A stretch of 32,000 nt of DNA. Origin: Dickeya dadantii NCPPB 898. GTDB taxonomy: Bacteria > Pseudomonadota > Gammaproteobacteria > Enterobacterales > Enterobacteriaceae. Numbering within the stretch: the stretch's first letter is position 1; the number at the start of each line of letters is the position of its first letter. Below are positions 6,560 to 23,331 of this stretch, in pieces. The notes under the pieces are model-generated. The model did not search any database. It was not told where the DNA came from and saw nothing but the letters and a program-made list of their open reading frames with translations. The stretch lies in contig NZ_CM001976.1 in assembly GCF_000406145.1 (NCBI RefSeq), positions 4,207,472 to 4,239,471 of the forward strand. The letters run 5' to 3'. The position numbers were made by a program, and so were the translations under genes.

Positions 6560-7924
6560 ATGAACGACACGGTGCTGACAATATGGCAACAGGCGAGGAT
6601 CAGCCGCGATCCGCGTTTTGACGGCACCTTTTTCGTCGCCGTCAAATCCACCGGTATTTTCTGCCGCCCCATCTGCCCGGCGTCGTTGCCGCTGGAGAAG
6701 AACGTCGTTTACTACCGCACCCGCACCGAGGCGATTCAGGCCGGTTTTCGCCCCTGCCTGCGCTGCAAGCCGGAATACGCGCCGCGCTTTGCCGAACTGG
6801 ACCGCAAACAGCTACTGCCGGTGCGCATCGCCGCCGCCATCGACAGCGGTGAACACCTGCTGTCGAAGGTGGAGCAGATTGCCGATGCCCACTTTCTCTC
6901 CAGCCGCTACCTGAACCGGTTGTTCCGCGAGCATTACGGCTGTTCGGTGAAGGAATACCAAAACATCGCGAAGATTTTTTTCGCCAAAAAGCTGTTCCAA
7001 AGCTCCAGCCTCAGCATCACCGATATCGCCGCATCGTGCGGATTCAGCGGCCTGAGCGGGTTTTATCAGCTTATCGACAAATACCTGAAAACCACGCCCA
7101 AACGGATGATGCTGTCGCCATCGGACAGCCGGAATAAGACCGAACACATCAGGCTGCGCCTGCCGGTCGGCGGGCGCTACCACTGGGATTATTTTCTGGC
7201 GTTCCAGTCGCGGCGGTTGATCGACGGCGTGGAATGGATCGAGGGCGCCACTTACGGCCGCCGCTTTAGCCTTAACGGCGAGAGGGGGTCGTTTCAGATA
7301 CGTCCGGCGACGGGCGGGTTTGATGTGACGATCGCGCTAAGCCGCCTGACGCTGTTGTCGCAGGTGCTGGAGCGGATCCGCAACCTGTTCGATCTCAACG
7401 TCAATATCGAGGCGGTCGAGGATCAGTTGCGTCGAGCCTATCCGACATTGCCGATCGTCCCCGGCATCCGCATTCCCGGCGTGTTCTCACCGTTTGAAGC
7501 CGCTCTCCGCGCCGTTTGCGGTCAGCAGGTGAGCGTATCCGCCGCCACCACGCTGCTGAACCAGCTGGTGTCGCTCTGCGCGATTGAGGAAGACGGCCAG
7601 CGTTATTTCCCAACGCCGGATCGCATTACGCCAGAGGTTGTCGGCCAACTGCGCACCATGCAGTCGAAAAAAGCCACGCTGGTGAATATCGCCGACTGGT
7701 TCTGCCACCACGACCTCAGCGAGATCGACAGGCTCACCGAGGTCAAAGGCGTCGGTCGCTGGACGCTCGATTATTTGAAACTGCGTTCGCTCAACGATCC
7801 CGATATCTGGCTTGGCGGCGATCTCGGCATCCGCAACGCTTTGCGCCAGTTGGGTGACATCGACCCGCAGCGGGCGGCGCCGTGGAAAAGCTACCTCACG
7901 CTGCATCTGTGGAACACGCTGTAA
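6560..7924 (+). CDS. Ada-AlkA fusion: Ada Zn-finger methylphosphotriester acceptor + AraC HTH + AlkA-type DNA-3-methyladenine glycosylase
   Basis: The N-terminus FVAVKSTGIFCRPICPA..GFRPCLRCKP carries the Ada Cys4 pattern. It is followed by an AraC-type HTH, then an AlkA_N / HhH-GPD region (..VKGVGRWTLDYLKLRSL..GGDLGIRNAL). The SD is gaggaa. Confidence 0.85.
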   Translation: MNDTVLTIWQQARISRDPRFDGTFFVAVKSTGIFCRPICPASLPLEKNVVYYRTRTEAIQAGFRPCLRCKPEYAPRFAELDRKQLLPVRIAAAIDSGEHLLSKVEQIADAHFLSSRYLNRLFREHYGCSVKEYQNIAKIFFAKKLFQSSSLSITDIAASCGFSGLSGFYQLIDKYLKTTPKRMMLSPSDSRNKTEHIRLRLPVGGRYHWDYFLAFQSRRLIDGVEWIEGATYGRRFSLNGERGSFQIRPATGGFDVTIALSRLTLLSQVLERIRNLFDLNVNIEAVEDQLRRAYPTLPIVPGIRIPGVFSPFEAALRAVCGQQVSVSAATTLLNQLVSLCAIEEDGQRYFPTPDRITPEVVGQLRTMQSKKATLVNIADWFCHHDLSEIDRLTEVKGVGRWTLDYLKLRSLNDPDIWLGGDLGIRNALRQLGDIDPQRAAPWKSYLTLHLWNTL

Positions 7925-7937
7925 ACATGCGCTATCC

Positions 7938-8067
7938 GTGGAAAAAGCATGCTGTGGAAAAAAACATGCAGTGGAAAAAGCATTCGGTGGAAAAACATGT
8001 TGAGGAAGAACATTCAGTGAAAAAACAGACCGTGGAAACACGTTTTGTGGAGGAACACCCTGTGAAG
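7938..8067 (+). repeat. About 8.5 degenerate tandem units of 15-17 bp (GTGGAAAAAnCATnn) between the Ada-AlkA stop and the conserved Ogt start
   Basis: Units start at 7938, 7954, 7971, 7987, 8002, 8017, 8032, 8047 and 8062. Unit lengths are 16, 17, 16, 15, 15, 15, 15 and 15. All units are purine-rich and stop-free in several frames. Confidence 0.85.
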
Positions 8068-8610
8068 ATGGCGACGCAACAACTGGACTGCCCGAACGGT
8101 TTCCCCTGGCGCTACGCCGACGTCACCGCCGCTGACGGCTGCGTGACCAGCGTGCTGTTCAGCAACGAGAAAAAAACCGCCCGGCCGGATACCGTCACAC
8201 AAACCTGCTGCCGGCAGTTGCAGGAATATTTCGCCGGCCAGCGCACCACCTTCGACCTGCCGCTGCATCAGGACGCCACGCCGTTCCGCCGGCAGGTCTA
8301 CGCCCGGCTGCTGGATATCGGCTACGGCGTGACCCGTAGTTACCAGCACGTCGCCATCGCCGTCGGCAACCCCAAAGGGTCGCGGGCGGTAGGCATGGCG
8401 TCGTCCAAAAACCAGATTTCCATCATCGTGCCCTGCCACCGGGTGATCGCGACCTCCGGCGCGCTGACCGGTTACGCCGGCGGGCTGGCGACCAAACAGT
8501 GGCTACTGGCGCACGAACGGCGTCATGCCGTTAAGACGGCAGCAGCGTCTGCAACCACTGTCGCTGCTGCTGATGCTGACGCTGTAAGCGCAGGTAATCG
8601 CCCGCTTTAA
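8068..8610 (+). CDS. ogt: Methylated-DNA--protein-cysteine S-methyltransferase (Ogt/AdaB type)
   Basis: It carries the active-site motif IIVPCHRVI and ..YAGGLATKQWLLAHE. The start is placed at ATG 8068 (MATQQLD..) after the GGAGGA. An alternative ATG at 7927 would translate the repeat array. The last roughly 28 aa run antisense into nifM. Confidence 0.85.
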   Translation: MATQQLDCPNGFPWRYADVTAADGCVTSVLFSNEKKTARPDTVTQTCCRQLQEYFAGQRTTFDLPLHQDATPFRRQVYARLLDIGYGVTRSYQHVAIAVGNPKGSRAVGMASSKNQISIIVPCHRVIATSGALTGYAGGLATKQWLLAHERRHAVKTAAASATTVAAADADAVSAGNRPL

Positions 8611-13400: not shown

Positions 13401-13417
13401 AGCAAATGTGATGCCAG
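13401..13417 (-). promoter_or_regulatory. Sigma54 -24/-12 promoter of nifUSVWZM
   Basis: The minus strand reads CTGGCATCACATTTGCT (GG-N10-GC). Compare Klebsiella nifU CTGGTATCGCAATTGCT as I recall it. Confidence 0.7.
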
Positions 13418-13500: not shown

Positions 13501-13516
13501 TGTCAGAGAGGTGACA
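13501..13516. promoter_or_regulatory. NifA UAS (TGT-N10-ACA) for nifU
   Basis: Exact TGTCAGAGAGGTGACA, about 100 bp upstream of the nifU -24/-12 element. Confidence 0.65.
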
Positions 13517-13773
13517 TTAATCAAAGGCTATCCTTCCAGTGCGAAAGCCTGACCGCAGGGAAATAGATTCTCACTTGGGGTGCTATTAAATAGCTTTTCC
13601 GCTTTTAGTTGGATCATAAAGAGAGTTTGCACAACACTTAACGCATACTGCATGAATGTGTATTCGATCTGAAAAATTATTTAACCATTTTAATTTTCAA
13701 ATATCTTATTTATGATATAAAATCATAAGGTTATAGGGCAGAGGGAAAATGGATTTTTTCATAAGGAGATGAT

Positions 13774-14577
13774 ATGAATGCTATTGAGTCATCCGTTGGC
13801 CTTGGCGGTATAAATAGGAAAAACGATGTTACTATCGTGCAACAGTTATTGAGGAACAGTGGCTTTCCATATTTACGCGTGGATGGAATTTGCGGGAGAA
13901 ACACAAAAAGAGCAATTATTGCTTATCAAAAGTACTTCCACTTCTCTCCTTATGGCATTATAGAACCCGGCGGAAAAACCATTGAAAACCTTACATCAAC
14001 TTCGCATACAGATTCTTTACCTAATCCTCATGGAGCGACAGGAATAAACCCCAGAGGTGAAAGAAAAAGAGCATCCCTCATGTCCCCCAGCTCTCAATGC
14101 ATTTATTTAATGAAGCAATATGAAAAACTGAAAACTAAGCCTTATGATGATCAGACTGGAAGGGAAACAACATTTTGGAAAGTAGGCGCCACAATAGGTT
14201 ATGGGCATTTAATTAGTGAGAATGAATTTGAACGATATAAGCAAGGAATAGCTCTTTCTGAAGCAGACACGTTATTCGCCCAAGATATTAGCAGATTCAT
14301 ACTAGCGGTTAGAAACTTTGTTAAAGTGGATATCACTCAAAATGAATTTGATGCACTCGTCATGCTATCTTTTAATATTGGAATAAAGGATAGACAGAGA
14401 CACAGAGGATTATATTACTCAACCGTCTTAAAAATCATAAATGGTGAATCGTCAGAAAACATAGATAACGCATGGATGAGATATACAATATCTCAGGGGC
14501 ACCAAATGCGGGGGTTAGTTAACAGAAGAAGAAGTGAACTAAATGTATATCACAAAGGTAATTATATAAAATTATGA
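13774..14577 (+). CDS. Peptidoglycan-binding domain + GH24 (T4/phage-type) lysozyme; candidate T6SS muramidase effector or endolysin-derived toxin
   Basis: The N-terminus DVTIVQQLLRNSGF..VDGICGRNTKRAIIAYQ is PG_binding_1-like. The C-terminus has ..QYEKLKTKPYDD..ATIGYGH..NEFDALVMLSFNIG..RGLVNRRRSE, the lysozyme E/D/T and core motifs. The SD AAGGAG is strong. Confidence 0.8.
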   Translation: MNAIESSVGLGGINRKNDVTIVQQLLRNSGFPYLRVDGICGRNTKRAIIAYQKYFHFSPYGIIEPGGKTIENLTSTSHTDSLPNPHGATGINPRGERKRASLMSPSSQCIYLMKQYEKLKTKPYDDQTGRETTFWKVGATIGYGHLISENEFERYKQGIALSEADTLFAQDISRFILAVRNFVKVDITQNEFDALVMLSFNIGIKDRQRHRGLYYSTVLKIINGESSENIDNAWMRYTISQGHQMRGLVNRRRSELNVYHKGNYIKL

Positions 14578-14978
14578 AGAAAATAATCACATCAATAATT
14601 GCAATTATGATTATTTCATTCAATGCATTCTCTAAAGAAGAGAATCCCGCCCTCCCTTTTTTCGAAGGAGAAACATATAATATTTATTTATCCTATGGTA
14701 AGTGTTCTCGACATGACATCGAATGCAGCGATATAACATATCATTCAATTAATAAAAAGAATAAAAGCGAGTTAAATATAAAAGGAAAAACATTAAATGT
14801 AGGGCCATCAAAAGACTTCAGAGGGTATATATTTAAAAATGGCTCATACACTTATACACTCACCCCTTCTCCAGAAGCAGATAATTATGATGACAGCATC
14901 TGGTTCCTGGATGTCTATAAAACAACAGACAATGGTGACAAATCTATTTTCAGAGAAAAAGGAAGGGTATCTGATTAG
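14574..14978 (+). CDS. Secreted (Sec signal peptide) small protein, candidate periplasmic immunity or lysozyme inhibitor
   Basis: Its start overlaps the lysozyme stop (ATGA). The signal peptide is MKKIITSIIAIMIISFNAFS/KE. The protein is 134 aa with two Cys. I recognise no family. Confidence 0.6.
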   Translation: MKKIITSIIAIMIISFNAFSKEENPALPFFEGETYNIYLSYGKCSRHDIECSDITYHSINKKNKSELNIKGKTLNVGPSKDFRGYIFKNGSYTYTLTPSPEADNYDDSIWFLDVYKTTDNGDKSIFREKGRVSD

Positions 14979-15007
14979 TAAAATAAAAAGAATAATTAGC
15001 CTACAGT

Positions 15008-15031
15008 AAAAGCCTGTAACAACAGGCTTTT
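15008..15031. terminator. Bidirectional rho-independent terminator between the convergent immunity-like gene and hcp
   Basis: aaaagcctgt-aaca-acaggctttt is a perfect 10-bp stem with A/T runs on both sides. Confidence 0.7.
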
Positions 15032-15059
15032 ACAAGATAAAAAATCAATTTAATATGAA

Positions 15060-15545
15060 TTAAAATTGATTATCATTCCATATACTATATCCTGATGTGC
15101 CTGCGGTTTTATGGGTCCATTCTATAGTGTTATACCGGAGCATGATAACTTCATATGGTAGAGAATCACTATCATTTAACGAATGCGGATAAGTTGCTGA
15201 TACTTCAACAATTCTGGCATCAGTAAGTTTTAATTCATAAAAAACCTCTAGTTGTCCAGCCAGGTTTGTCCGATAAAAGAAAAAAGTAAGCAGTAAGTGA
15301 TTCATTTGATGTAACAGAAACACCAAGCAAAGGAGAGGAGAGGATTTATCTATCGGTTTAATCAGCTGTATAGGATGATGGGCTATATTCTCCTCTCGGG
15401 TTATCGTATGGTTTAACCCCAACACCTGTATTTGGTCTTCATGCCCTTTCTGATAACGATTTCCAATAGAATCAAATGTTGAGCACCCCGAAGAAATTAG
15501 CCCCTGCTGATTACCTTCCAGAGTCAGATAAATAATATGTGACAT
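15060..15545 (-). CDS. hcp: Hcp, type VI secretion tube/chaperone protein (orphan copy)
   Basis: IYLTLEGNQQGLISSGCSTFDSIGNRYQKGHEDQIQVL..FYRT..IEWTHKTAGTSG matches the enterobacterial Hcp pattern (..IEGQTQGLITAGA.T.DSIG....GHEDE..). It is 161 aa. Confidence 0.85.
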   Translation of the reverse strand: MSHIIYLTLEGNQQGLISSGCSTFDSIGNRYQKGHEDQIQVLGLNHTITREENIAHHPIQLIKPIDKSSPLLCLVFLLHQMNHLLLTFFFYRTNLAGQLEVFYELKLTDARIVEVSATYPHSLNDSDSLPYEVIMLRYNTIEWTHKTAGTSGYSIWNDNQF

Positions 15546-15862
15546 TGATTACCATCCTTGTGAAAATAATATAATCGCACCATATTAATAGTGTTCATGG
15601 ATAGTACATCAAAAAAATTCAAAAAATAAATTAAATTAGCAAATAAGTATATAATCTCTTGGATAGTTTCCTATGGGTATACTGCATTCATTACTTAAAT
15701 AACGGCGATCAATTATATCAAGTGAGATTATAACTGCTGGCGTCGTTATAGGACTTGCTGCTGCCCTAACCCGGAACAATTTTAAAACCAGAGCCTCGAT
15801 TAAGGATGCGCCTATTTTTCGTGGGTAAAATCAAATTCACCGGCTAACCATGACAAGCAAAA

Positions 15863-16090
15863 CTATGTTTTCTTTTTCAAAAACACGCCAACCAGGTACG
15901 TTACGGCAAAAGATAAAACGGACGATATCAGTACCTTGATAACCAATACTGAAAAATAGAAATCATCCATCGCTTCTTCGCCATCGCCGCTGATAGTCAG
16001 GTGGCTCATAACAAAATCCCTTAATGCCTGTTCAGGCAGGATAGATGCGAACAAGAAGAGCAAAATAAGAAAATAAATTATATTTTTCAT
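15863..16090 (-). CDS. Hypothetical small two-TM membrane protein
   Basis: MKNIIYFLILLFLFASILP.. is followed by a second hydrophobic helix (VLVIKVLISSVLSFAVTYLVGVFL). There is no clear SD. The TTG start at 16114 in the ORF track is less likely. Confidence 0.4.
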   Translation of the reverse strand: MKNIIYFLILLFLFASILPEQALRDFVMSHLTISGDGEEAMDDFYFSVLVIKVLISSVLSFAVTYLVGVFLKKKT

Positions 16091-16161
16091 AAAATTACGC
16101 AAAAATTCCAACACAACGCCAGTCGGTCGCGTTTCGAACAGCGCAACGCCCTGGCCTCAGG

Positions 16162-16186
16162 GACAAGGCTCATGACGAGCCTTGTC
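16162..16186 (-). terminator. Perfect 10-bp hairpin downstream of nifX (possible end of nifENX transcript)
   Basis: gacaaggctc-atgac-gagccttgtc lies about 35 nt after the nifX stop. No U-tract follows. Confidence 0.35.
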
Positions 16187-16220
16187 ACGCGGCAACCCCA
16201 GAAGCTTACATAACCCTCAC

Positions 16221-16688
16221 TCACAACACATCATCCTCCTCGCTCCACTGCTGTTCGGCGATCAACCGATCGAAACGATCAGGGTCGCGCTGGCGGCGGG
16301 CAACGCGCTGATCGTCGTCGTGCCAGCACTGTTGAATTTGTTGTAGCAGTTGGGCGATCGGCGTGTCGGCCGGTACGCGCACCGCCCGCACCCCCACCTG
16401 CAGCAACTGGCGGAACACGGCGTCGCCAATCGCCACGCAATACAGCGTGACGCAATCTTCCAGTGCGTCGATGCGACAGGTGAGTTTGTCCTCCTGATGG
16501 CCGTAGCGCACGTTGAAATCCACCACTTTCAGCAGCGTGACCTGATCTTCCTTTACGCCGTAAACCACCAGCCGGGGCGTGGCGCCAAAGTGCTGATCGA
16601 CATGGTGATAGTCAGAACTGGCGAACGCCACCTTCATGGACCACACGCCCGCGCTGATGGCGCTGAGATGCCGGTTAATATGCTGCAT
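16221..16688 (-). CDS. nifX: NifX
   Basis: ..WSMKVAFASSDYHHVDQHFGATPRLVVYGVK..CVAIGDAVFRQLLQVGVRA.. is nearly collinear with K. pneumoniae NifX. The start MQHINR overlaps the nifN end. Confidence 0.93.
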   Translation of the reverse strand: MQHINRHLSAISAGVWSMKVAFASSDYHHVDQHFGATPRLVVYGVKEDQVTLLKVVDFNVRYGHQEDKLTCRIDALEDCVTLYCVAIGDAVFRQLLQVGVRAVRVPADTPIAQLLQQIQQCWHDDDQRVARRQRDPDRFDRLIAEQQWSEEDDVL

Positions 16689-19892: not shown

Positions 19893-21485
19893 ATGTTAGA
19901 AAAAATCAAAATAAAAAATGGGCTTTACTGCGTTATCGCCGTATTTGTGCTGCTATTACTTTCCATTTGCACGTACAGTCTGTATTCCTCCATGCAAAGC
20001 AACCTGTCGATCCGAAAGGTCAACAGCATTGATGGAGAACAGCTTATCCCCCTTTATTCCGCCTATTCGGAAATGCTCAATGCCAGACTGGCCGGCATCA
20101 ACGTCGCGCTGGCGATTGAGGAAAAAAAGGATAACGCCACGATCGACGCCGCATTGAACCGGCTTAACGGCTATATCGACGCCGCCAACGGTACGATGGC
20201 GGAACTGCGCAATATTCCGACGCTGACGTCGCAAGGCCGCGCGCTGCGCGGTGAAATCGATGAAGCCTTCAATGACTACATGAACAACGCCGTCGCCCCG
20301 ATGCTCACCGCGCTGCGCGAGCGCAACGTTGAGCGGTTCTACACCACGCTGGTGCCCAGTGCACTGGAGAAAGGCGCGACCTTCCGCCAGAAGCTGACGC
20401 AGTTTGTCACCTTCGCCAAAGGTATCGGGCATGAAGAGATCGCACAGGCGGACAGCTTCTATCAGCAAACATTAACGGTCCTGATCGCCACGCTGGGTGT
20501 GGTGGTGCTCATCAGTCTATTCACCCTGAAGTTCATCCGCACCGTGGTGCTGACCCCGATGCAGAAAGTCAGAACCTATTTCGGCATGATGGAACAAGGC
20601 GTACTGACGCTGGATATTCCTCCTCAGCACAATACCGAGATGGGCGGGCTGATGGTTTCGCTGAAAGACATGCAGCAGGCATTCCGCAAAATCGTGCTGG
20701 ATGTCAGAGACTCGGCCGGTTCCGTGGCGGCCGGCGCGGAACAGATCTCCGCCGCCAACCGGGATTTCGCCGCCCGTACCGAAGCGCAGGCGTCATCCGT
20801 CGAGCAAACCGCCGCCAGCATGGAACAAATCACCGCATCTGTGCAGGAAAACACCGCCAACACCGGCAAAGCCATGACTCTGACCAACTCCGTGGCGACG
20901 CTGGCGGAAAAAAACGCCAGCAACTTTAGCCAGATGATCGAACGCATCCAGCATATCGCCGACAGCTCCAACAAGATCAACGATATCATCAGCATCATGG
21001 ACGGCATCGCCTTCCAGACCAACATTCTGGCGCTTAACGCCGCGGTGGAAGCCGCCCGCGCGGGCGAAGCCGGTAAAGGCTTTGCGGTGGTGGCGTCTGA
21101 AGTGCGCAGTCTGGCGCAGCGCAGCGCCGGGTCAGCGCGAGAAATCAAAGAGTTGATCGAAAAAACGGCCAGTGAAATCGCTCTGGGCGAAAAAGTCGCC
21201 TCGCTCTCCACCCAGGATATGACGCGGCTGATGGATGAGATTAAACGCGTGAATGAATTCATGGCGGATATCTCGATGGCTTCATCAGAGCAAGCCAAAG
21301 GCATCGAACAGGTTAACACCGCCATCACCCTGCTTGAGCAAGCCTCCCAGCAAAACGCGGCGCTGGTCGAAGAGTCCGCCTCCGCCAGTTCCTCGCTGCA
21401 CGAACAGGCGAAAAATCTGGACGACACCATGACGTTTTTCAACCTGAGCGACAACAGCCCACTGGCTATCGCCGCGCCGCGTTGA
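19893..21485 (+). CDS. Methyl-accepting chemotaxis protein (four-helix-bundle periplasmic sensor, HAMP, MA signalling domain)
   Basis: It has two TM segments, a HAMP region and the conserved hairpin ..[41 protein letters not shown]... The SD is AAAGGAGA. Confidence 0.92.
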
Positions 21486-22119: not shown

Positions 22120-23331
22120 TTAATTGAATTTTTTCTTCTTATCATGACGGTACGGCTTCGCACTGTAAGCCGGCGTCATGACTGTCGATACCGCTTGTTT
22201 AATTGACTCTTTTAATCCTTTAAACAAGCTGATTTCATTTGAGATATCCAGATAATCACTGATCCCCTGAGCCAGGGACTCAATAATAGTTTGTGCGTCA
22301 CGAATACGGAAAGTAGACGACTCAGCCAGTTTCAGCAGACAGGCTTTATCCGGAAATACCTTACTGTTTGCCATCTTGAGCGCCATCTTATTATCAATGG
22401 CGTCATAAATCAGAGTATGGGTGATATCAAACGGCGGAGAAATAAATATCCGTTTCATGTCGGGCGTATATTGCAAGGCAAAATTTTTCAGATGAGCATC
22501 GCCATTACCGATCAAACAATTAAACACAATGTATTGATACATTTTGAATACTTCATCATAACTACCGGTGTAAAGATGCGTTGCTTTCAACAATGTCTCG
22601 TAGCTGCCACTATATTTCGCATCAGGATTGTTGGATTTTTTCAGCAATGTAGTGAAATCTTCATACCCCAATCGCTGCCCTTCTGGTTTATCGAAACGCG
22701 CAACAACAAAGGTTTCAAGATTCTCTGACAACCAGGTATCAGGCGGTTCTAAACCGCAATACCTCGCCGCCCCCATACATACAAATTCATTAACCGTCAG
22801 CAAAGGAAATAGCTCGTCAAACGATTTCACGATAAGCGCTTTCTGTTCCACCGTCCTGCCTGTTTCGGGCAGGCTAACCTTGGGCTGTACGCCGGCCAGC
22901 GTATTACTCAAGTAATATTTTTCCAGCAACTGGGGAAATAACGGCTCCGCGCCCTGATAATGCAAAATCTCGGATAACGAGATATTTTCAGTTTCAGAAA
23001 AATGTAAATCGCTTTGGTAATCCAGCATGCCAATACCATGCTCTCCCTGCAATGCAAGCAGATACATATCATTGACCCGCGCATAACGGGCCAGTTTTTC
23101 CGCGATATAACGTCGGTTAAATCCTTCAGGAAGGTTCTGCGCGAAAACAGGATGCAGGGCGCCGGATACATAGCCATCCAGCGTAGAGTTTGTCATGGTT
23201 AACGACACATGATGCTGAACCTGAGTGGGCTGATAATGATGAACCGAACCGTGCGTCAGAACGCCCAATGGCTGGCCTGATGAACACACGGTAATCTTGT
23301 CGATTTTTCCGGGCAGTTGCTCCAGCACCAT
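22120..23331 (-). CDS. hipA: HipA-family Ser/Thr kinase toxin
   Basis: It has GVQPKVS (P-loop-like), NGDAHLKNFAL (catalytic loop) and SPPFDITHT (Mg-binding Asp region). It is 403 aa and the gene is AT-rich. Confidence 0.88.
   Translation of the reverse strand: MVLEQLPGKIDKITVCSSGQPLGVLTHGSVHHYQPTQVQHHVSLTMTNSTLDGYVSGALHPVFAQNLPEGFNRRYIAEKLARYARVNDMYLLALQGEHGIGMLDYQSDLHFSETENISLSEILHYQGAEPLFPQLLEKYYLSNTLAGVQPKVSLPETGRTVEQKALIVKSFDELFPLLTVNEFVCMGAARYCGLEPPDTWLSENLETFVVARFDKPEGQRLGYEDFTTLLKKSNNPDAKYSGSYETLLKATHLYTGSYDEVFKMYQYIVFNCLIGNGDAHLKNFALQYTPDMKRIFISPPFDITHTLIYDAIDNKMALKMANSKVFPDKACLLKLAESSTFRIRDAQTIIESLAQGISDYLDISNEISLFKGLKESIKQAVSTVMTPAYSAKPYRHDKKKKFN

Follow-up and report, generated by a model that had tools for sequence, protein, structure and literature searches.

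A signal-less GH24 muramidase and its exported partner in the nif cluster of Dickeya dadantii NCPPB 898: a probable type VI secretion effector-immunity module

Introduction

Why does a gene for a phage-type lysozyme lie among the nitrogen fixation (nif) genes of a soft-rot plant pathogen, and what is the role of the small gene that overlaps its end? This question is raised by a stretch of 32,000 nucleotides (nt) from Dickeya dadantii NCPPB 898 (assembly GCF_000406145.1, contig NZ_CM001976.1, forward-strand positions 4,207,472 to 4,239,471), the whole of which is referred to below as the window. It contains a gene for a 267-amino-acid (aa) lysozyme followed by a gene for a 134-aa protein, which we call the partner. 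[quoted passage not shown] The functional class to which such a pair would belong, namely, T6SS-delivered peptidoglycan glycoside hydrolases with cognate periplasmic immunity proteins, is well established. In the present study, we used family searches, structure prediction, and comparisons of genomic contexts, and the results obtained argue for a bicistronic T6SS effector-immunity module, a reading to which we assign a probability of roughly 85%.

Results

A muramidase without a signal peptide

The lysozyme ORF lies where the original prediction had placed it, and the two domains that had been recognized by eye, an N-terminal peptidoglycan-binding repeat and a T4-type lysozyme core, were both found by Pfam as PG_binding_1 and GH24, each with a score above its gathering threshold (Table 1). 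PG_binding_1 is also present in the homologue from the Pantoea hcp island. Residues E117, D126, and T140, the last of which is part of the motif ATIGYGH, align with E11, D20, and T26 of T4 lysozyme and are conserved in all aligned relatives; regarding the catalytic residues that had been suggested, E117, D126, and T140 stood, and D125, offered as an alternative to D126, did not, because D126 is the residue in the column of D20. A profile score above the gathering threshold together with the catalytic Glu-Asp-Thr places the protein in GH24. Direct reading of the sequence revealed no hydrophobic segment at the N-terminus, in agreement with the earlier statement that the enzyme has no signal peptide.

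A phmmer search of all PDB chains with the lysozyme returned nine matches, all of which were lysozymes, endolysins, or GH24 muramidases and none of which was a T6SS effector; the best were phage-type GH24 lysozymes, such as 9kbq and 7m5i. The view that the architecture is not typical of the Tge families of T6SS muramidases is consistent with this exclusively GH24 phage-type result, and, assuming that the solved Tge-family structures are among the chains searched, the search revealed no relationship to Tge1-3, with which no pairwise comparison was run.

An exported partner of an unassigned family

The partner ORF, its length of 134 aa, its Sec signal, and its two cysteines were as originally described. 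The N-terminus, MKKIITSIIAIMIISFNAFS followed by KEEN, is a typical Sec signal (residues 1-20) with no lipobox. The protein has exactly two cysteines, C44 and C51, and these are the sole invariant columns in an alignment of 67 family members, in which G71, G84, and Y94 are nearly invariant and all 23 displayed rows begin with a hydrophobic, signal-like segment. Searching 1.84 billion representative proteins with a profile yielded a family of 86 clusters at 50% identity, which spans Enterobacterales, Campylobacter, and Commensalibacter and the named members of which carry only the labels "hypothetical", "secreted", or "exported" protein or "lipoprotein".

The partner had been called unrecognizable, and a remote-homology check had been proposed; in the searches that follow, neither a lysozyme-inhibitor family nor a known unrelated family was identified. 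The partner matched no Pfam, NCBIfam, or PHROG family, the Pfam models of MliC/PliC (PF09864), Ivy (PF08816), and LprI (PF07007) gave no match at E-values up to 1, and a Pfam scan of the 67 family members was negative for each. Nothing meaningful was obtained with the family profile among PDB sequences, in which no Tsi or Tgi chain was matched.

The AlphaFold2 model of the partner built from the 67-sequence alignment has a mean predicted local distance difference test score (pLDDT) of 87 and a predicted template-modelling (TM) score of 0.74, and consists of eight beta strands after the signal peptide; a first model from a shallow alignment of nine sequences was unusable (pLDDT 47) and was discarded. 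C44 and C51, which probably form a disulfide (C-x6-C), lie in a loop between the second and third strands of the model. Foldseek searches of the PDB and BFVD with this model returned only weak lipocalin-, avidin-, or calycin-like matches (best E-value 0.012, TM-score below 0.45), and, in view of these generic beta-barrel matches, no fold assignment is claimed.

Conservation of the gene pair

The translational coupling in the original prediction was borne out on reading the sequence, as the tetranucleotide ATGA at 14574-14577 contains both the start codon of the partner and the stop codon of the lysozyme. This 4-nt overlap was found in every enterobacterial pair examined, down to a lysozyme identity of 42%, in Dickeya, a Serratia metagenome-assembled genome (MAG), Pantoea, Erwinia, Atlantibacter, Mangrovibacter, and the isolate RIT714. 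The Campylobacter pair differs in that the overlap is 7 nt; its first gene encodes an 831-aa protein with GH24 at the C-terminus and its second a 119-aa protein that clearly belongs to the partner family (hhalign probability 99.6%, E-value 5e-24).

Linkage to type VI secretion genes

The Hcp protein that had been noted next to the pair was confirmed by a TIGR03344 match; its gene is an orphan hcp (tssD) that converges on the pair (Table 1). The trio of lysozyme, partner, and convergent hcp recurs among methyl-accepting chemotaxis protein (MCP) genes in D. zeae and D. chrysanthemi Ech1591, and, since this is a completely different Dickeya locus, the three genes travel together.

Beyond Dickeya, the pair directly abuts the genes for PpkA-ClpV-TssG-TssF in seven genome loci (Pantoea sp. 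SMAGNO104, Candidatus P. formicae, Erwinia sp. S63, P. rodasii, Candidatus P. communis, P. rwandensis, and an uncultured MAG), two Joint Genome Institute contigs, and a P. piersonii plasmid, with identities of 57-61% for the lysozyme and 44-46% for the partner. Four Pantoea-like metagenome contigs carry the order TssA-TssB-TssC-Hcp-lysozyme-partner-LprI-TagH on one strand, in which the lysozyme (PG_binding_1 and GH24, 263 aa) is 44% identical over its full length and the partner (123 aa, 4-nt overlap) is 31% identical; the succession of hcp, lysozyme, and partner in these contigs is the textbook hcp-effector-immunity layout. GH24 domains with 37-47% identity to that of the lysozyme are fused to PAAR in Halomonadaceae, and one such gene lies between tssM and vgrG.

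Some of these loci have features of their own. Approximately 680 N-terminal residues of the 831-aa Campylobacter protein, which is encoded on plasmid NZ_CP040614.1 (locus L034, 4383-6878), have no Pfam match, and a gene for an EexN entry-exclusion lipoprotein lies approximately 4 kb upstream; either a T6SS or a conjugation-type system may deliver this protein. In two copies of the Serratia MAG locus (L005, 7537-8004; L018, 9372-10004), the called lysozyme has just 155 aa (210 aa when read from the earliest in-frame start), and, based on this call, the PG-binding domain is apparently not encoded in a full-length gene; tblastn nevertheless aligns all 267 lysozyme residues at 61% identity, and the partner is intact. 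An error in the start site, a frameshift, or decay of the effector may account for this. In the other Dickeya locus, the lysozyme is preceded, at a distance of approximately 320 nt and on its own strand, by a gene for a 301-307-aa protein with no Pfam match (L011, 4775-5680; L002, 5956-6879). This gene has no counterpart beside the pair in the window, and could encode an accessory or adaptor protein or be unrelated.

Orphan partners and exchange of modules

At the nifU-nifX site of D. solani, the partner is present alone, the lysozyme and hcp are gone, and the partner is preceded by approximately 48 nt that are homologous to the 3' end of the lysozyme gene, with an indel. Further orphan partners were found in Pantoea sp. 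alder81, Rahnella victoriana, and Commensalibacter. In addition, a subfamily of the P. agglomerans type, which forms a cluster of 169 sequences, occupies the fourth position in the order Hcp-Tae4-Tai4-partner-LprI-LprI-TagH, which is an orphan immunity gene array inside the T6SS-1 hcp island.

The partner is also combined with other toxins and the lysozyme with other small proteins. In Erwinia, a partner-family member follows a muramidase with a Pesticin domain (PF16754); sister lysozymes are followed by LprI-domain or unrelated small proteins in place of the partner, and PAAR-fused lysozymes by unrelated proteins of 156-163 aa. The genes downstream of the PAAR-lysozymes of Halomonas and Billgrantia were considered as possible kin of the partner and rejected, as hhalign was negative and they belong to a different family. 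Polymorphic toxin-immunity cassettes would be expected to exchange their modules in this manner.

The Commensalibacter case is distinct in its form. In C. intestini, an acetic-acid bacterium from insect guts, a 240-aa protein composed of two partner-family domains in tandem is encoded between housekeeping genes with no lysozyme nearby (L032/L033, 8001-8723), which gives it the appearance of a duplicated orphan immunity gene in a lineage remote from Enterobacterales.

Comparison with phage lysozymes

The endolysin-like architecture of the lysozyme was confirmed by matches to phage enzymes both along its full length and in the catalytic domain. Modular endolysins of the Acinetobacter phages AM24 and Mithridates have the same domain order and catalytic triad, and identity to Acinetobacter phage endolysins is 26-28% over 93% of the length. 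The GH24 lysozymes of Klebsiella phage FBKp34 and of Aeromonas phages such as phiA009 are approximately 45% identical over the catalytic domain only, and that of FBKp34 has an insertion between the catalytic Asp and Thr in common with the Dickeya enzyme. PHROG endolysin families also match (phrog_7, E-value 1.7e-24).

These phage genes reside within phage genomes and, unlike the Dickeya lysozyme, have no partner-family gene beside them. Among 50,697 phage records, no relatives of the partner were found except in one unverified 2-kb contig and lysozyme matches did not exceed 45% identity, over the catalytic domain, and IMG/VR contained no partner relatives and only lysozyme relatives with identities of up to 35%. 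The lone contig was set aside because it is of low coverage, has no annotated features and no lysozyme-family ORF, and may be bacterial contamination. Phage genes were absent from the AT-rich island in which the pair lies and from approximately 20 distinct loci examined; therefore, the concern raised at the outset that homologues might always reside in prophage lysis modules did not materialize. The lysozyme domain was probably recruited from phages long ago, and the gene is not a prophage remnant.

The AT-rich island and its nif surroundings

The window is a Dickeya nif cluster, the proteins of which have their closest matches in D. chrysanthemi. The minus strand carries nifB, nifA, nifL, nifM, nifZ, nifW, nifV, nifS, nifU, nifX, nifN, nifE, nifY, nifK, nifD, and nifH, and nifJ is on the plus strand. 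The G+C content is 60-68% over the nif genes versus 31-37% over the island in which the pair lies, which contains four ORFs, two on the plus strand (267 and 134 aa) and two on the minus strand (161 and 83 aa; Table 1). Its flanks are conserved with D. solani up to approximately 13565 on the left and from approximately 15835 on the right. We looked for terminal repeats and mobile-element scars around the island and found none that were convincing, and no long terminal repeats.

Just beyond the left edge are a sigma-54 promoter of nifU (TGGCAT-N5-TTGCT, 13401-13416, minus strand) and an upstream activating sequence (UAS) for NifA (TGT-N10-ACA, 13501-13516); since both lie outside the island, its insertion left the control of nifUSVWZM undisturbed. 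Sites of the TGT-N10-ACA type are enriched in the window (11 found versus 4.4 expected). On the plus strand of the island region, no sigma-54 promoter for the lysozyme was found, and co-regulation of the lysozyme with nif through NifA was dropped as an idea because the UAS and the -24/-12 element belong to nifU.

Table 1. Positions of the AT-rich island and of the features within it, in window coordinates.
Feature	Position	Strand	Evidence and remarks
AT-rich island, approximately 2.6 kb	13520-16130		Composition profile; flanked by the nifU promoter region on one side and the end of nifX on the other
Putative sigma-70-like promoter hexamers of the lysozyme-partner operon	13694-13723	+	Consensus scan; weak, no better than chance
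Shine-Dalgarno sequence AAGGAG of the lysozyme-partner operon	13763-13768	+	Read from the sequence
Putative effector gene, signal-less 267-aa muramidase	13774-14577	+	ORF, Pfam, homologues, GH24 matches in the PDB
PG_binding_1 domain (residues 16-62)	13819-13959	+	PF01471, E-value 2.4e-7, 31.3 bits versus cut-off 23
Phage_lysozyme/GH24 (T4-type) domain (residues 114-255)	14113-14538	+	PF00959, E-value 1.8e-23, 83.7 bits versus cut-off 22.3
Putative immunity gene, 134-aa periplasmic protein	14574-14978	+	4-nt overlap, family search, alignment, AlphaFold2 model
Hairpin AAAAGCCTGT-AACA-ACAGGCTTTT	15008-15031		Read from the sequence; separates the partner and hcp genes, which converge
Orphan hcp (tssD), 161 aa	15060-15545	-	TIGR03344, E-value 1.3e-51; PF05638; convergent with the pair
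Doubtful AT-rich ORF, 83 aa	15863-16114	-	Between nifX and hcp; two hydrophobic segments

The hairpin between the convergent partner and hcp genes is likely a bidirectional terminator, as judged from its sequence and position; a terminator scan did not flag it. The hcp gene differs from the copies in D. zeae and Ech1591 by an additional 5 nt and, approximately 50 nt later, an additional 1 nt (window 15240-15380). Residues 73-87 (15 codons) are out of frame, with CLVFLLHQMNHLLLT in place of GVSVTSNESLTAN, and the frame is then restored, which could indicate a decaying orphan hcp or an assembly error. The 83-aa ORF matched no family, and a hairpin resembling a terminator (16110-16133) overlaps with its start; the DNA at 15835-16300 is 93% identical in D. 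solani, in which just a 48-aa ORF is called.

Further non-nif genes lie within the nif cluster. One encodes a HipA-family toxin kinase (HipA_C, E-value 3e-39; 22120-23331, minus strand) and is located between a chemoreceptor gene and nifY, in a second region of reduced GC content (44-50%); at this site, D. solani instead has a gene for a 130-aa protein that matched no Pfam family. An MCP gene (19893-21485, plus strand) lies between nifE and nifY, and ada-ogt for DNA alkylation repair (6560-8610, plus strand) between nifL and nifM, both on the strand opposite to the nif genes. Since both of these are present in D. solani as well, the Dickeya nif cluster tolerates several insertions between its operons.

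Discussion

The logic of an effector and its immunity protein, proposed for these genes at the outset, received strong support from the conserved linkage to T6SS genes, the 4-nt overlap, the orphan partners, the shuffling of modules, and the absence of a phage context. The features generally looked for in a T6SS effector-immunity pair were found here, namely, an asymmetry of export signals between the two proteins, linkage to hcp, PAAR, and T6SS core genes across taxa, and orphan immunity genes. In the mechanism that we propose, the 267-aa lysozyme would be made in the cytoplasm without a signal peptide, loaded on the T6SS, probably via an Hcp tube protein such as the adjoining one, and fired into the periplasm of neighboring Gram-negative cells. 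The PG_binding_1 domain would anchor the enzyme on the sacculus, and the GH24 domain would cut the glycan strands between N-acetylmuramic acid and N-acetylglucosamine, with Glu117 acting as the acid and Asp126 and Thr140 positioning the water, which would be toxic to the target cell through lysis. The partner would be exported by Sec, fold into a small all-beta domain, probably with a C44-C51 disulfide, and, in the periplasm of producing and kin cells, most likely bind the muramidase and directly block it. Delivery through Hcp, rather than through VgrG or PAAR, appears to be the most likely route, at slightly better than even odds. Among the muramidase effectors of the T6SS, Tse3 is generally described as Hcp-dependent.

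Several points weigh against the effector-immunity reading. The hcp gene in the window is on the opposite strand to the pair and, with a frameshift over 15 codons, may be impaired, which makes the delivery route uncertain. The T6SS core cluster, as well as the rest of the genome, lies outside the window, and the pairs of Atlantibacter, Mangrovibacter, RIT714, and the Serratia MAG have no T6SS gene within 8-10 kb, as judged with a small number of query proteins. The catalytic domain is as near to some phage lysozymes (approximately 45%) as to the PAAR-fused ones, and the partner model matched no solved immunity protein or lysozyme inhibitor in Foldseek. Moreover, our literature searches yielded neither experiments on members of the two families nor an account of the Dickeya copies.

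Other roles for the pair need to be considered in this light. The muramidase may be a bacteriocin that acts independently of the T6SS, similar to pesticin and its immunity protein Pim of Yersinia pestis, in which case lysis or a different exporter would release it and an outer-membrane receptor would mediate its uptake, with the partner protecting the producer. The catalytic fold is the same as that of pesticin, one member of the partner family is encoded after a free-standing 199-aa protein with a Pesticin domain and has no T6SS genes in its vicinity, and the pairs without a T6SS neighbor would fit as well; however, the N-terminal domain is of the peptidoglycan-binding type rather than of a receptor-binding or translocation type, the partner family is unrelated to Pim (encoded on pPCP1; hhalign probability 0.3%), and a bacteriocin would not account for the association with hcp, PAAR, and T6SS core clusters, which is found repeatedly and independently. 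We consider this explanation to be quite improbable. An origin as the remains of a lysis cassette from a prophage or tailocin, in which the endolysin would be followed by a membrane-anchored accessory lysis protein of the spanin or holin type, is very unlikely: the island and the other loci contain no phage genes, and the partner, which has no relatives in the phage or IMG/VR collections, has a predicted all-beta structure and cleavable signal, in contrast to the helical coiled coils of spanins and the multiple transmembrane segments of holins. Orphan partners inside T6SS hcp islands would also make no sense for a lysis protein, which is to be set against the frequency of the PG_binding_1 and GH24 combination among endolysins, the phrog_7 match, the identities to Acinetobacter phage enzymes over the full length and to Klebsiella and Aeromonas phage enzymes in the catalytic domain, and the AT-richness of the island.

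In Pantoea and Erwinia, the proximity of the pair to T6SS core genes is also what would be expected of a housekeeping enzyme that remodels the wall to ease the T6SS through the peptidoglycan of the producer, in the manner of TagX or recruited MltE, the partner serving to regulate it in the periplasm. A lysozyme of this type would hardly be as patchy and strain-variable as the present one, which has been deleted at some sites with only the partner being kept, or be found in AT-rich, horizontally acquired islets and a variable hcp island. Since it has no export signal, the lysozyme cannot reach the periplasm of its own cell unaided, and the PAAR fusions of the GH24 domain indicate cargo rather than machinery; a housekeeping function is, thus, hardly credible. 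The original prediction had further offered a new type of periplasmic lysozyme inhibitor as an alternative to an immunity protein, which we do not regard as a rival because it describes the same thing from the side of immunity.

The suggestion that the T6SS effector-immunity pair represents a new family was not upheld, as the same types of genes have already been predicted in Pantoea in studies from 2014, 2022, and 2023. In the T6SS-1 of P. ananatis, PG_binding proteins with pesticin-like folds are encoded between hcp and tagH and were proposed to be Tge-like effectors (Shyntum et al., 2014; PMC3942780), and a protein of P. agglomerans with the same description was named Pme (bioRxiv 10.1101/2023.03.17.533219). 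A small signal-peptide gene of Pantoea between tai4 and LprI genes, A7P61_RS17165, was described as a lysozyme-inhibitor-like orphan immunity gene, homologues of which were noted downstream of effectors with endolysin domains (Carobbi et al., 2022; PMC9796082). The muramidases of the Pantoea hcp islands have the same two-domain architecture as the Dickeya lysozyme and a similar size (263-279 aa), the partner family fills the slot marked x in the order Tai4-x-LprI-LprI-TagH that was described for A7P61_RS17165, and two of the loci that we examined (L047 and L064) reproduce the published Pantoea layouts with members of both families. The Dickeya pair, hence, appears to be a further member of the family predicted computationally in Pantoea. 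Its equation with GQQ16_RS01780 (Pme) and A7P61_RS17165 is based on position and description. Unlike its Pantoea counterparts, the Dickeya module lies outside any T6SS cluster, in the nif cluster or among MCP genes, and has a convergent orphan hcp of its own.

Experimentally validated systems of a similar design are VgrG fusions with PG-binding and pesticin-like toxin domains (PMC9927483; PMC9620997). VgrG3cp-TsiV3cp of Vibrio cholerae (PMC9927483) and TssI2-TsiI2 of V. fluvialis (PMC9620997) each consist of a T6SS-delivered muramidase with a T4-lysozyme fold and a small immunity protein encoded downstream; in VgrG3cp, a PG-binding domain is located just upstream of the toxin, comparable to the Dickeya lysozyme, and TsiI2 has 127 aa, is exported by Sec, and binds with a dissociation constant of approximately 1 nM. 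The module of TssI2 toxin and immunity genes is of low GC content, as is the Dickeya pair. The Vibrio toxins differ in being C-terminal extensions of the VgrG spike that belong to the Pesticin family, whereas the Dickeya lysozyme is free-standing, belongs to PF00959, and is encoded beside hcp. Among the 21 partner-family clusters with source names that were looked up or listed, there was no Vibrio name. Tge1-3 with Tgi1-3, such as Tse3-Tsi3 (Whitney et al., 2013; PMC3792639), represent the same functional class of a glycoside hydrolase acting in the periplasm and a periplasmic immunity protein.

MliC/PliC, Ivy, LprI, ACP, and Pim are small periplasmic proteins or lipoproteins that bind lysozymes, which is the putative role of the partner as well. 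MliC/PliC and ACP fold into beta-barrels of eight strands and contain a disulfide. The partner model is also eight-stranded, but has a short C-x6-C loop instead of the long-range disulfide of these proteins; LprI-domain genes are the ones that take the place of the partner beside sister lysozymes. An hhalign comparison of the partner family with E. coli MliC gave a probability of 36%, over the signal peptide only. A published HHpred search linked Neisseria ACP to the Pantoea gene in the slot of the partner family with a probability of 92.95% (PMC9796082); this link was not reproduced for the partner family by hhalign against a single-sequence template (3%), and 5MY7 was not among the top 50 Foldseek matches. 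A remote relationship of the MliC or ACP type may still exist, because hhalign with a single template is less sensitive than the published HHpred search (PMC9796082).

A bolder idea is that the partner family comprises uncharacterized dedicated inhibitors of GH24 lysozymes of the T4 and pesticin types, structurally unlike Ivy, MliC/PliC, PliG, PliI, and LprI, the orphans of which would provide cross-immunity against T6SS attack and perhaps also inhibit phage lysozymes. We regard this idea as unlikely; if true, the orphan partners of D. solani, P. agglomerans, Rahnella, and Commensalibacter might interfere with phage-mediated lysis.

Regarding the T6SS effector-immunity module itself, our results do not overturn current ideas, and instead fill in a predicted family. 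Rhs nucleases of D. dadantii have already been studied (cited in PMC3942780), and, if confirmed, the lysozyme would add a T6SS effector that targets the cell wall to the arsenal of Dickeya soft-rot pathogens. Confirmation would also open to experiment, for the first time, an effector-immunity family known only from predictions in Pantoea. At a single genomic site, D. chrysanthemi has the full module and D. solani the immunity gene only, which predicts one-way killing between these two species. The partner family would then gain a name as a family of immunity proteins or GH24-lysozyme inhibitors, and the annotation of orphan immunity arrays would be improved.

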